Shown here: positions 48,260-51,007 of the stretch, in pieces
Numbering within the stretch: the first letter of the stretch is position 1
Layout: every line of letters starts with the position of its first letter
Origin: a virus
IMG/VR virus record: IMGVR_UViG_3300045988_139407
Strand: one strand, 5' to 3'
DNA length: 63,275 bases
The notes under the pieces: generated by a model
Databases searched by the model: none
Told to the model about the DNA's origin: nothing
The model's input: the letters and a program-made list of their open reading frames with translations, nothing else
Position numbers and translations under genes: made by a program

Positions 48260-49645
48260 TTAGTCGCTGAGGAGAGACTGGAGATAATTCTGAGTCTGAT
48301 CATCCAAGTCGGCCAGTGACTGTTCTTCTTCTGCCACCGATGGATTCCAGACGATGCCCAGTTTGGCTAGAGTGCCATTCTTGTAGGCATCTTTCACCAT
48401 CTGTGCCATGGAACCATCCGGGTTCTTCTTGGCGGCTTCAATCCAGCCTAAATACTTCTGCCGTAAGGCTTCGGTCTGTTCTTTCTCCAGTTCCTTCTTG
48501 CGTTCTTCCTTCATTCTGAGGCGAGCTTCAATTTCCTCGTTACTTTCCTCGCGTTGAGGCTGAGGAGGAGCAGGTGGTGGAGAACTTGAATGCTGAGGCT
48601 TCTTCCCAGCTGAGGCTACAACTGTAGGGTTGTCGAAGGTTCCTTCCATCAGAGCCTCGTAGTTCTTCGGATTGAATATCCAGTTGAAGGAGATATAGCA
48701 TCCACCATCCTTGCGCCCTGAGAGAAGATCGGAGTTGAGAGCCTTTCGAAGCATCGGTTCTATATCCTCGAAGGAATAGTCTGAGATAAACTTTGCCACC
48801 ATCTTCTTGCGGTCGGGAGTCATCTTTGAGATTGGCTTGACCTGCGTTCCAAGAAAGAGGCGATTGAAGAGTCTTAGCACTTCCGAGAACTGAACTTCCG
48901 GATCCAACGACTTTTTTTCTTTTTCTTTTTTTTGTGTGTGGGTGTGGGCTTTCTCCTTTCTTTGTTTGTTTTCTTTTATAGGGGGTTCGGGGGAAATGTT
49001 TTCTTTTATTTGTTTCTTTCCTCTTACTTCTGTGCCCTTACCCTTGCCCTTGGCTGTGCCCTCAACTTCGGCAGAATCTTCGGAATCACATTTATTTAAA
49101 GGGGTTTCGGAGTGTGAAATCTGTGCCCCAGATTGTGCCCTTGGCTGTGCCCCTTGTTTTGTCTGTGCCCTAGATTGTGCCCTATTCGTGCCCTTAACTG
49201 TGCCCTTAACTGTGCCCTTGCTAGTTTCAGAATCTTCGGAATCGCCTTTATTTAAAGGAACTTCGGAAGATTGAATCTGTGCCCTAGATTGTGCCCCAAT
49301 CTGTGCCCCGAAGTGTGCCGTAACCTGTGCCCCTTGGTCTCTTTGCCACGGTATGATGCAGTGGGATAGGGGGTGAGAACTGTTAACGTAGAGTTTGGTT
49401 GAGGCTCTTGGAGCAGAGCACTTGGTGATGATTTTCTCGGCTATGAGCACATCGATGGCGACACGGATGGTCTTGACCGTGGTATGGAGCTGTAGAGCCA
49501 AATCACGATAGGAGAGGGTGGCAGCGGAAGCCTCGTTGTGAGCGGAGGAGAGGAGCACATGGATGAGCACCTGAACGACCACAGGACGATGGAAGTAACG
49601 CCACTGCAACAGCTCTGGAGTAAATATGTAGCCATCTGTTTTCAT
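48260..49645 (-). CDS. Replication initiator / replisome organiser, 461 aa
   Basis: N-terminal winged-helix-like segment (LSYRDLALQLHTTVKTIRVAIDVLIAEKIITK). Repeat-rich linker (GAQ/RAQ units). The C-terminal part (VLRLFNRLF...MTPDRKKMVAKFISDYSFEDIEPMLRKAL...FNWIFNPKNYEALMEG) resembles the DnaD/'conserved phage C-terminus' organiser domain. Confidence 0.55.
   Translation of the reverse strand: MKTDGYIFTPELLQWRYFHRPVVVQVLIHVLLSSAHNEASAATLSYRDLALQLHTTVKTIRVAIDVLIAEKIITKCSAPRASTKLYVNSSHPLSHCIIPWQRDQGAQVTAHFGAQIGAQSRAQIQSSEVPLNKGDSEDSETSKGTVKGTVKGTNRAQSRAQTKQGAQPRAQSGAQISHSETPLNKCDSEDSAEVEGTAKGKGKGTEVRGKKQIKENISPEPPIKENKQRKEKAHTHTQKKEKEKKSLDPEVQFSEVLRLFNRLFLGTQVKPISKMTPDRKKMVAKFISDYSFEDIEPMLRKALNSDLLSGRKDGGCYISFNWIFNPKNYEALMEGTFDNPTVVASAGKKPQHSSSPPPAPPQPQREESNEEIEARLRMKEERKKELEKEQTEALRQKYLGWIEAAKKNPDGSMAQMVKDAYKNGTLAKLGIVWNPSVAEEEQSLADLDDQTQNYLQSLLSD
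49031..49332. repeat. Iteron-like array: 14 exact TGTGCCC plus 2 one-mismatch copies, mostly at 12-bp spacing; candidate origin of replication
   Basis: Exact copies start at 49031, 49055, 49122, 49134, 49146, 49164, 49176, 49199, 49211, 49278, 49290, 49302 and 49326. Variants start at 49187 and 49314, and one further exact copy is counted within the array. Two blocks of about 75 bp (49071-49140 and 49228-49296) are also near-duplicates. The array is flanked by a T-rich tract at 48905-49030. Confidence 0.6.
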
Positions 49646-49693: not shown

Positions 49694-51007
49694 TTATTTG
49701 TTTTCTTCAGCCTCGATGGCACGGAATATCTCGTAAGCCACTTGTGGGACCCAGGCATTGCCGTAAGCCTTTATGGATTCTTGTCGCCACTTGGGGAAAG
49801 AAATGGTAAGGCTGTCCACATCAAAGGGAATCCCATCATTTCCTCTACAAACAGGGGATTGAGTTGGGAAGTTCCGCCACCTACTTTGTGGGCTATCTGC
49901 TCCGCTAGATTGGCTTTCTCCTTGTTGTGGCTCTTCAAAGAATCCATTGTCATTGTACTTCTGAGACCATCTGTTGCACTTGGAGTGAGGAGATAATGGA
50001 AATCCAGAAAGTCGGTCAGTCCTTTCACTCGGTTGGAGTGTTTTATCTCCATTGCAGTAGGCGTGGGAAGCAAGCCTTTTCGAGCGGCGAGTGCCAAGGT
50101 TGGACGATCTGCTGCATTCGGTGATGGACTTCTGTTTATTCGCCCTCCTCCTTTGTCTATGGCTGTTGGAGTAGGAAGAAGTTTTGCTACTGCCATGTCT
50201 TCTAACTCCAGGTTGTGGTCGGTCTTGCCCTTCTTTGGATTTCTTCTCCCTCGCTCGTTGATTTCCATGTCCTTGAGAGGAATATCCATCGCATTGGGTG
50301 TGGGCAATATGTCCGAGAACATCACTTGTGAAGCCAGGCTTCCGTATGTCGTTCCGTTCCGATAACCGTTCTTTTTGGCTCTTTCCTTGAATTTCTTCGG
50401 ATCTTCGGTTATCATTACTGCTGTTGGGGTTAGAAGGAGTTGCTGATATTCTTCTTGCAACAATCCATACTCTATCCCTTCTGTGGGGCGCTCCGACACT
50501 GCAAGCTGGAATAACAATCGGTTGGACGGAATATCCTTCGGCTTCGAGATCTGCACAGATTTTGTCGAGTGTGAATCGGCTTTCTTCTCTATATATGTAA
50601 TTCTCTTCGAAAAGATCGTCTGTGCGTCCCATCTGAGTGACTTGGCAGGACTCCACCATCGTCTTGATTCCAGCAACGTTTTCACCAACGACCCAAGTGG
50701 GGTGTATCTGCCGTATCGCTCGAAGCATCTGAGGCCAGAGGTAGCGGTTATCGTCCGCTCCCTTTCTTCGACCAGCGAGGGAGAAGGGTTGGCATGGGAA
50801 TCCTCCGGTGAGAACATCGACTTTTCCCTGCCACTGATGGAAGTCTGTTTTGGTAATGTCTTCATAACTTTCTGAATTTGGGAACCAGTATTGGAGCACC
50901 TTGCGAGGGAACTCTTGTATCTCGCAATGGAAGAGGTTCTGCCATCCCATCATGGATGCCGCGACCTCAGCACCACCGATTCCGCTGAATAAACTAGCGT
51001 GATTCAT
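49694..51007 (-). CDS. C5 cytosine DNA methyltransferase, frame A, 437 aa from ATG 51007
   Basis: Motif I LFSGIGG, IV GGFPCQPFS, VI VVGENV, VIII APHRRDRVWIVA and C-terminal motif X AYGNAWVPQV are all in this frame. The roughly 200-aa region between VIII and X is S/R/N/K-rich low complexity. Confidence 0.75.
   Translation of the reverse strand: MNHASLFSGIGGAEVAASMMGWQNLFHCEIQEFPRKVLQYWFPNSESYEDITKTDFHQWQGKVDVLTGGFPCQPFSLAGRRKGADDNRYLWPQMLRAIRQIHPTWVVGENVAGIKTMVESCQVTQMGRTDDLFEENYIYREESRFTLDKICADLEAEGYSVQPIVIPACSVGAPHRRDRVWIVARRISATPSNPNSSNDNRRSEEIQGKSQKERLSERNDIRKPGFTSDVLGHIAHTQCDGYSSQGHGNQRAREKKSKEGQDRPQPGVRRHGSSKTSSYSNSHRQRRRANKQKSITECSRSSNLGTRRSKRLASHAYCNGDKTLQPSERTDRLSGFPLSPHSKCNRWSQKYNDNGFFEEPQQGESQSSGADSPQSRWRNFPTQSPVCRGNDGIPFDVDSLTISFPKWRQESIKAYGNAWVPQVAYEIFRAIEAEENK
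49771..50865 (-). CDS. Second long ORF (frame B, +1 relative to frame A) nested inside the methyltransferase gene, 364 codons
   Basis: Five [LI]L[PT]TP[TSN]A repeats (LLTPTAVM, ILPTPNAMD, LLPTPTAID, LLPTPTAME, LLTPSATD) and a motif-IX-like LNPLFVEEMMGFPLMWT. Its stop (49771-49773) lies 6 nt upstream of the Tyr codon of motif X in frame A. Confidence 0.4.
   Translation of the reverse strand: MKTLPKQTSISGREKSMFSPEDSHANPSPSLVEERERTITATSGLRCFERYGRYTPLGSLVKTLLESRRWWSPAKSLRWDAQTIFSKRITYIEKKADSHSTKSVQISKPKDIPSNRLLFQLAVSERPTEGIEYGLLQEEYQQLLLTPTAVMITEDPKKFKERAKKNGYRNGTTYGSLASQVMFSDILPTPNAMDIPLKDMEINERGRRNPKKGKTDHNLELEDMAVAKLLPTPTAIDKGGGRINRSPSPNAADRPTLALAARKGLLPTPTAMEIKHSNRVKGLTDFLDFHYLLTPSATDGLRSTMTMDSLKSHNKEKANLAEQIAHKVGGGTSQLNPLFVEEMMGFPLMWTALPFLSPSGDKNP

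Follow-up and report, generated by a model that had tools for sequence, protein, structure and literature searches.

The C5-methyltransferases of Bacillus phages SPR, phi3T, rho11 and H2 are multispecific enzymes in which several tandem target-recognising domains lie between motifs VIII and IX of a single polypeptide, coded in one frame. Other C5 enzymes are naturally split. The Escherichia coli enzyme M.EcoHK31I (YGGCCR) is heterodimeric, with motifs I–VIII and X on the alpha subunit and motif IX on the beta subunit, both of which are needed for activity (PMC2836561, PMC3404938), and its beta open reading frame (ORF) lies wholly within the alpha gene, in another frame. M.AquI (CYCGRG) is likewise made of two subunits, separated in the variable region, the smaller one having part of the recognition region and motif IX (PMC3404938). 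Here we analyse a C5-methyltransferase locus in a 63,275-nucleotide stretch of viral DNA (IMG/VR record IMGVR_UViG_3300045988_139407, hereafter the window), where two long frames of the same strand, A and B, are open over each other. The two frames are a real, conserved nested gene pair, and we propose, with a probability of roughly 0.7, that they encode a two-subunit C5-methyltransferase of the EcoHK31I kind, most likely in a form much more extreme and much more widespread than M.EcoHK31I, the single described case.

Compared with the published description of M.EcoHK31I, on which (rather than on its sequence) the comparison is based, the locus has the same arrangement, since frame B lies wholly inside frame A, +1 relative to it, and the same division of motifs, with I–VIII and X on A and IX on B. 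It differs in that B (364 aa) is far larger than the known beta subunit, begins upstream of motif IV and is dual-coded with catalytic motifs, and in that B carries a series of LLPTPxA modules and A a long unconstrained spacer. M.AquI resembles the locus in that a C5 enzyme is naturally divided inside its variable region, but its beta subunit also has motif X and is not called nested in the source, whereas here motif X is on the proposed alpha subunit and A must therefore be read through the coding region of B. With the multispecific phage enzymes the locus shares tandem modules at the same position, five in the window; those enzymes, however, are not divided between two frames.

Both ORFs are as given in the preliminary description of this DNA, and the coordinates of the motifs were verified (Table 1). 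Frame B spans 83% of the alpha gene and, measured from stop to stop, is open for 392 codons; the third frame of the gene contains 28 stops. Frame A matched the Pfam C5-methyltransferase family PF00145 with an E-value of 1.3e-41 (143.6 bits against a cut-off of 22) over model positions 1–292 of 324, as well as TIGR00675 dcm (3.5e-35, 122.2 bits against a cut-off of 100.65) and phrog_363 (4.7e-69). The catalytic motifs I (FxGxG), IV (PCQ), VI (ENV), VIII and X are all on the frame A polypeptide; the variable region and motif IX, which a single-chain C5 enzyme has between motifs VIII and X, are not. In their place A has about 190 residues (187–376) rich in S, R, Q, G, N and K, in agreement with the S/R/N/K-rich low complexity reported earlier, and the sole conserved sequence between motifs VIII and IX is that of frame B. 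Among the PHROGs, frame B matched phrog_1008, annotated 'DNA methyltransferase' (1e-16); profile searches of Pfam and NCBIfam gave no match for it. Some details of the preliminary description needed correction: of the five repeats written as [LI]L[PT]TP[TSN]A, three are exact (ILPTPNA and LLPTPTA twice), and LLLTPTA and YLLTPSA deviate from the pattern; and the stop codon of B does adjoin the Tyr codon of motif X, at a distance of 5 nt instead of 6.

Table 1. Coordinates of the nested frames, their regions and their motifs in the window.
Feature	Position	Strand	Description
Frame A ORF	49694..51007	minus	ATG 51007 to TAA 49694-49696; 437 aa; proposed alpha subunit; motifs I, IV, VI, VIII, then ~190-aa spacer, then motif X
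Frame B ORF	49771..50865	minus	ATG 50865 to TAA 49771-49773; 364 aa; proposed beta subunit; N-terminal part over A's motifs IV-VIII, five LLPTPxA modules, motif IX
R1, coded by A only	50866..51007	minus	contains motif I; B-frame stops at gene codons 0 and 18
R2, dual-coded	50440..50862	minus	A: motifs IV, VI, VIII; B: ~140-aa N-terminal peptide
R3	49864..50439	minus	B: target-recognition-like modules; A: low-complexity spacer
Motif I, FSGIGG	50972-50989	minus	frame A
Start codon of B, ATG	50863..50865	minus	A's Tyr48 TAT plus G of Glu49; A-rich upstream context (AAATTCAGAAAGTT)
Motif IV, GFPCQPFS	50780-50803	minus	frame A
Motif VI, GENV	50675-50686	minus	frame A
Motif VIII, PHRRDRVWIVA	50456-50488	minus	frame A
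Module LLLTPTA	50419-50439	minus	frame B
Module ILPTPNA	50290-50310	minus	frame B
Module LLPTPTA	50161-50181	minus	frame B
Module LLPTPTA	50053-50073	minus	frame B
Module YLLTPSA	49975-49995	minus	frame B
Motif IX, LNPLFVEEMMGFPLMWT	49813-49863	minus	frame B
Motif X, YGNAWVPQV	49739-49765	minus	frame A; 5 nt downstream of B's stop codon

The nesting is conserved far beyond the window. By similarity to frame B alone, 160 loci were retrieved from species-representative genomes and viral contigs; motif IX is present in 155 of them, and 144 could be scored, being sufficiently complete. It had been suggested beforehand that homologues be compared, since loci with only one open frame would speak against a genuine overlap. 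Between motifs VIII and X for A, and between VIII and IX for B, both frames proved open in 128 of the 144. A is broken by TGA codons only in 11 others, motif VIII is out of frame with motif X in four, and B is short in one; no TAA or TAG was found in the spacer of A in any of the 144. The hosts of the retrieved loci include Bacteroidota, Firmicutes, Alpha- and Gammaproteobacteria, Actinobacteria, Patescibacteria, Myxococcales, one archaeal bin and others. An ORF pair like that of the window (440 and 372 aa) occurs in Bacteroides phage BS-TP4, and nesting was also observed in Bacteroides phage BKO1-TP3, Lacticaseibacillus phage R9.1, Paenibacillus phage Rani, Klebsiella phage KpV2811 and an uncultured gut phage. 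At the nucleotide level the sole match of the locus in a phage collection (megablast) was a stretch of 150 nt with 77.6% identity in BS-TP4, and the region of the B modules shares 33–36% identity (tblastn) with BS-TP4 (33%) and BKO1-TP3. The search was also extended to database ORFs, with at least 2787 matches using the B protein of the window as query and at least 4024 using a profile of five B proteins; against representative clusters the B profile gave 7252 matches at E ≤1e-3 and 3549 at 1e-10, which are counts of B-type ORFs as such, whether nested or otherwise. B homologues differ from one another by whole LLPTPxA modules, their length ranging from 313 to 436 aa among close relatives and their number of modules, counted with a regular expression, from one to six. 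The preliminary description had listed a switchable specificity mechanism as its last explanation; such module differences aside, no device for switching was seen.

Stops are avoided in both frames. The earlier estimate of a chance probability of about 1e-8 for 364 open codons is arithmetically correct ((61/64)^364 = 2.6e-8). We used a permutation test in which synonymous codons were shuffled region by region, the protein and the codon composition of the clearly coding frame being kept. In R3 of the window, frame A has no stop against 9–11 expected (P <2e-4), and in R2 frame B has none against 2.3–3.9 expected (probability of being open, 0.003–0.02). The same regions gave similar results in other phages: for A in R3, 9–10 stops were expected and none is present in BS-TP4 and BKO1-TP3 (P <2e-4 each), and 3.5 were expected in R9.1 (P of no stop = 0.003); for B in R2, 1.6–3.9 stops were expected across these three phages and the window (P 0.003–0.08). 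Pooled over 83 non-identical nested genes, the expectation is 571 stops for A in R3 and 206 for B in R2, and the observed numbers are 0 and 0, the prediction being about 6–10 stops for A and about 2–4 for B in these regions of a gene; these genes were picked for being nested, the unbiased figure being the 128 of 144 loci given above. The third frame of the 83 genes has 1023 and 728 stops in the corresponding regions, with 23–28 stops per gene. Chance openness or a peculiar base composition was rejected on the basis of the permutation tests and of the third-frame counts.

Selection was examined by frame and by region, as had also been proposed in the preliminary description, and it differs between regions. 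For this purpose 84 genes were aligned as proteins and back-translated, and the fraction of pairwise differences at 4-fold degenerate sites was taken as the measure of diversity. For frame A this value is 0.66 (neutral-like) at codons 0–30 of R1, 0.49–0.55 just before the ATG of B, 0.25–0.58 across R2, 0.11–0.16 under motif IX and 0.67–0.68 in the A-only C-terminus with motif X. Val and Leu codons are the sole 4-fold codons able to create stops in frame B, and the drop persists without them (0.46 in R2 versus 0.615 and 0.68). For frame B the value is 0.59–0.68 over the modules, as free as in single-coded regions, and 0.33 at motif IX. Naive NG86 estimates of dN/dS over 138 pairs, whose values are confounded by the frame overlap, were 0.24 for frame A, 0.70 for frame B and 2.7 for the third frame in R2, 1.32, 0.29 and 1.10, respectively, in R3, and 0.70, 0.26 and 1.41 at motif IX. 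The pattern is nevertheless clear. Over the modules (R3), B is the selected frame and A is merely kept free of stops, being otherwise an unconstrained spacer; over motifs IV–VIII (R2), A is dominant and some extra constraint fits a translated B peptide; and at motif IX both frames are constrained. At this last site motif IX of frame B overlaps a conserved frame A peptide, FPTQSPVCRGNDGIP (49826-49870); the conserved C-terminal peptide of A (FPTQSPVC..DG in the window, EP.VGRVADG.P.R.DR in other lineages) corresponds to motif IX of B read in the −1 frame.

Frame B is provided with a conserved start codon and, in lineages using Shine-Dalgarno pairing, with a ribosome-binding site of its own. In 108 of 111 nested loci the first ATG of the frame precedes motif IV, most commonly by exactly 23 codons counted from PCQ, and an ATG is present at the aligned site in 71 of 84 genes. 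The Tyr codon in the S-Y-E-D of frame A that forms this ATG is TAT in 77 of 80 genes, compared with 423 TAT versus 413 TAC (51% TAT) for the other Tyr codons of A. A Shine-Dalgarno site is found inside A, upstream of the ATG of B, in homologues from Firmicutes, Patescibacteria and Myxococcales: AAAGGAG at 7 nt in Pseudoflavonifractor and two viral contigs, GGAGG at 10 nt in a Patescibacteria bin and GAGGAGG at 4 nt in a Myxococcales bin. Bacteroidota do not rely on Shine-Dalgarno pairing, and their B start codons have an A-rich context. At the other end, the stop of B precedes the GN of motif X by 4 codons (median of 111 loci). With both ORFs conserved across phyla and free of stops against the permutation expectation, and with a conserved start of its own for B, the overprinted gene pair that the preliminary description had listed among its explanations is the one upheld.

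Further evidence on the nature of B comes from single-chain relatives. When the sequence is read as A, then B, then A, the resulting chimera matches PF00145 at positions 1–323 of 324 and its C-terminal part aligns with residues 264–311 of M.HhaI, GGTSQLNPLFVEEMMGFPLMWT with motif IX and KAYGNAWVPQV with motif X. The earlier statement that this order gives a textbook methyltransferase therefore holds for homology, including collinearity with M.HhaI, and not as a route of translation. In the DNA methyltransferases of mycobacteriophages Babsiella (gp54) and Filuzino (gp68), homologues of the modules and motif IX of B lie in the in-frame variable region (tblastn, 30% identity, E = 7e-8), the likeness consisting of the LLPTPxA modules and motif IX. 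Because this content is homologous to an in-frame variable region that in Babsiella gp54 continues into motif X, sequence comparison indicates that the ancestral state is a single chain, whose variable region and motif IX are now in the +1 frame. Babsiella differs from the window in having most of its modules, motif IX and motif X in frame with motifs I–VIII, and represents an intermediate layout. From their position and from this homology, we infer that the LLPTPxA modules would be the recognition domain.

In the Babsiella locus (L003), a single frame, that of gp54 (858–2705), leads from motifs I–VIII through a low-complexity stretch and six modules to motifs IX and X, and a +1 ORF, gp55 (1198–1701, annotated 'DNA methylase domain protein'), has three more TPxA modules over the low-complexity stretch of gp54. 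The Paenibacillus larvae phages (e.g. Rani gp50/gp51) share the nesting in the +1 frame, and GenBank lists both coding sequences as DNA methyltransferase, gp51 being described as 'g50 Internal gene'; this internal gene is known as an annotation only, and the genome-comparison papers that we checked do not discuss it. A literature search, of partial coverage, for an account or survey of the nested family found none beyond these GenBank annotations (Rani gp51, Babsiella gp55).

We thus propose the following scheme. Frame A would be translated from its own ATG across the whole 1.3 kb to give alpha. The sequence of the ~190-residue spacer of alpha would be immaterial, a stop codon in it being forbidden since motif X would be lost; that alpha must reach motif X would explain the avoidance of stops in a spacer that is otherwise unconstrained. 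Frame B would be translated independently, from the conserved ATG inside A, which lies 23 codons before motif IV, to give beta, which would supply the parts missing from A, namely tandem LLPTPxA modules in the target-recognition position followed by motif IX. Since the first module of B already overlaps the end of motif VIII, the start of beta would be placed in the variable loop that precedes motif IV, the nearest position ahead of the modules where a start could be tolerated. By analogy with the chains of M.EcoHK31I, alpha and beta would assemble into an active enzyme, which may methylate the phage DNA and serve in its protection from restriction.

Several points weigh against this two-subunit scheme. 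That both proteins are made and bind each other, that the modules recognise DNA and that methylation protects from restriction is something we infer from the sequences. The recognition domain of M.EcoHK31I has been assigned to alpha and not to beta, whereas here alpha has a spacer in that place. The extra synonymous-site constraint in R2 is moderate and may have other causes, and the dN/dS values carry the confounding already mentioned. The N-terminal ~140 residues of B (MKTLPKQT...SPEDS...TATSG...LVKTLLES..., including the peptides MKTLPKQTSISGR and TITATSGLR) owe much of their conservation to the motifs of A, of which they are a by-product: PEDS.A is the +1 reading of GGFPCQ in A, TATSG that of DDNRYLW and LVKTLL that of GENV. 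Structure prediction did not help either. AlphaFold2 gave a mean pLDDT of 35.7 for B (alignment of 53 sequences) and 30.5 for A (40 sequences), with no structural support for recognition-domain modules in the former or for a disordered spacer in the latter; even the known catalytic fold was missed, likely owing to the shallow alignments. Run against PDB sequences, the B profile returned only noise (T4 lysozyme, E ~0.02) and no solved structure. Finally, rare variants have A and B fused: in loci L053 and L143 they are joined in frame directly after motif VIII, and five single-member database ORFs (P0014, P0059, P0121, P0136, P0155) are fused at varied junctions within R2. Such fusions could mean that a fused chain is tolerated; because the junction points of the five database ORFs differ and their clusters have a single member, we treat these five as indel variants or errors and not as evidence of recoding.

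These same five ORFs are what could be cited for an artefact, in which compensating assembly indels or a stop-poor base composition would have produced the overlap. We find this scarcely credible, as the layout is seen again in phages that have been cultured and fully sequenced, and in most of the scored loci, and the third-frame stops and the permutation tests speak against chance. An assembly error was also rejected as a candidate on the recurrence of the layout and on the frame A protein (P0312), which is recorded in identical form on 36 contigs. Programmed frameshifting, which the preliminary description had also entertained, would make a single A-B-A chain, perhaps beside unshifted A, by starting in A, shifting +1 after motif VIII, reading the modules and motif IX in B and shifting −1 before motif X. 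The collinearity of the A-B-A chimera with canonical single-chain enzymes, the presence in Babsiella gp54 of modules, IX and X in one frame with motifs I–VIII, and the in-frame junctions of L053 and L143 would all agree with such a chain, and so would a C_CCT_TTG heptamer within motif IX (F-P-L; 49822-49828, minus strand), of X_XXY_YYZ form in frame B. This heptamer is not mentioned in the preliminary description, which reported no classical slippery heptamer at either junction; it is nevertheless poorly conserved, CCCTTTG or CCCTTTA being present in only 33 of 84 homologues and any X_XXY_YYZ between motif IX and the stop of B in 42 of 84. At the upstream junction, where the first module overlaps the end of motif VIII, a shift would have to fall within a window of about one codon, and no conserved shift signal is found there; nor did any other slippery site prove to be conserved. 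Frameshifting would moreover leave unexplained why A has ~200 unconstrained codons free of stops, and is open for ~250 codons past the shift, and why B is already open, with a conserved ATG or Shine-Dalgarno site, ~140 codons before the place where the shift would occur. In an extensive review of recoding, yeast TRM140 is the one methyltransferase mentioned, and no DNA methylase is listed. We therefore hold programmed frameshifting to be quite improbable, though the occasional natural A::B fusions leave it some probability.

It could also be that both proteins are made and do not form one enzyme, A alone being a methylase, perhaps of relaxed specificity, and B having a separate role in specificity modulation, DNA binding or anti-restriction. 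Some constraint specific to B is seen in its N-terminal 140 residues, its homologues differ in whole modules, and B is free of stops in a clade of Bacteroides chromosomal copies whose A has in-frame TGA codons, all of which would suit a protein acting separately. In that clade, however, A is under strong purifying selection (dN/dS 0.08), so it has not been lost. Moreover, B has motif IX and sits exactly at the position of the variable region and motif IX of single-chain relatives, and A is without both; to our knowledge, no solved or characterised C5 enzyme works without a variable region and motif IX. We regard a separate role as unlikely, and favour the two-subunit enzyme from nested genes.

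More tentatively, and with somewhat less than an even chance of being right, the nested alpha/beta pair might be how phage and prophage C5-methylases of a very large class are normally built, and not a peculiarity of one E. coli enzyme. In this class beta would be a detachable specificity subunit composed of exchangeable LLPTPxA recognition modules, and the enzyme would thereby be multispecific. If so, the two subunits would be inherited and transcribed together owing to the nesting, with overprinting of up to ~1.1 kb and ~140 codons selected in both frames, and annotations calling frame A only would misstate the make-up of the enzyme in many phage genomes.

Cases of long same-strand nesting in which selection acts on both frames are regarded as rare among bacteria and bacterial viruses; the loci checked here provide at least 128 natural examples, with overlaps of up to ~1.1 kb and products that would be functionally complementary. 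Many phage genes annotated as 'cytosine methyltransferase' would cover the catalytic half only, the part conferring specificity being listed as hypothetical or missed, which would affect predictions of phage methylation, restriction escape and host range. For the engineering of targeted methylases, in which M.EcoHK31I has already served, a naturally split enzyme whose specificity subunit is modular would be of use. Since they share the same DNA, alpha and beta sequences are paired automatically, which suits the study of co-evolution and the modelling of the complex.

The clade with TGA codons in frame A comprises loci L025, L026, L029–L035, L038, L039, L041, L044–L046, L049 and L050, all from Bacteroides and Parabacteroides chromosomes (for example B. 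xylanisolvens XB1A, NC_021017.1, near 3.07 Mb). Frame A has two or three in-frame stops in these copies, all of them TGA, and frame B is free of stops. No obvious in-frame TGA was seen in the flanking ORFs of the clade. Three TGA sites are recurrent (AAE*MGW, DFRQ*RG and SFSQ*R) and occur where homologues have Trp. Two subclades share the first TGA, and between them the A-only parts have a dS of ~1.08 and a dN of 0.089 (dN/dS 0.08); frame A has therefore been under purifying selection since it gained the TGA. This suggests that these copies are no pseudogenes and that TGA in frame A is read as an amino acid, probably Trp.

Some loci depart from the layout of the window in other ways. In the uncultured gut phage (L004, MT835926.1; ~600–1750), an intein-like insertion interrupts motif IV of frame A (GGFPC|FDGDTLV...VVHN|CQPFS), and the B ORF starts inside the 3' end of this insert. 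In Klebsiella virus KpV2811 (L169, NC_054653.1; 1189–2538), the B-frame ORF (449 aa) passes motif X without a stop and remains open in the same frame into the next gene downstream, for which the annotation is endonuclease VII (HNH type). A Clostridia bin (L076, 2017–2964) has a minimal layout, with a short A spacer and a +1 ORF of 50 codons holding little beyond motif IX, which is closer to the layout of M.EcoHK31I. In the window, the adjoining downstream gene (48260-49645, minus strand) encodes a 461-aa replication-initiation or DnaD-like protein (phrog_345, phrog_10469) with an internally duplicated low-complexity segment and GAQ/RAQ repeats, in which ...PLNKGDSEDSE... recurs as ...PLNKCDSEDSA....

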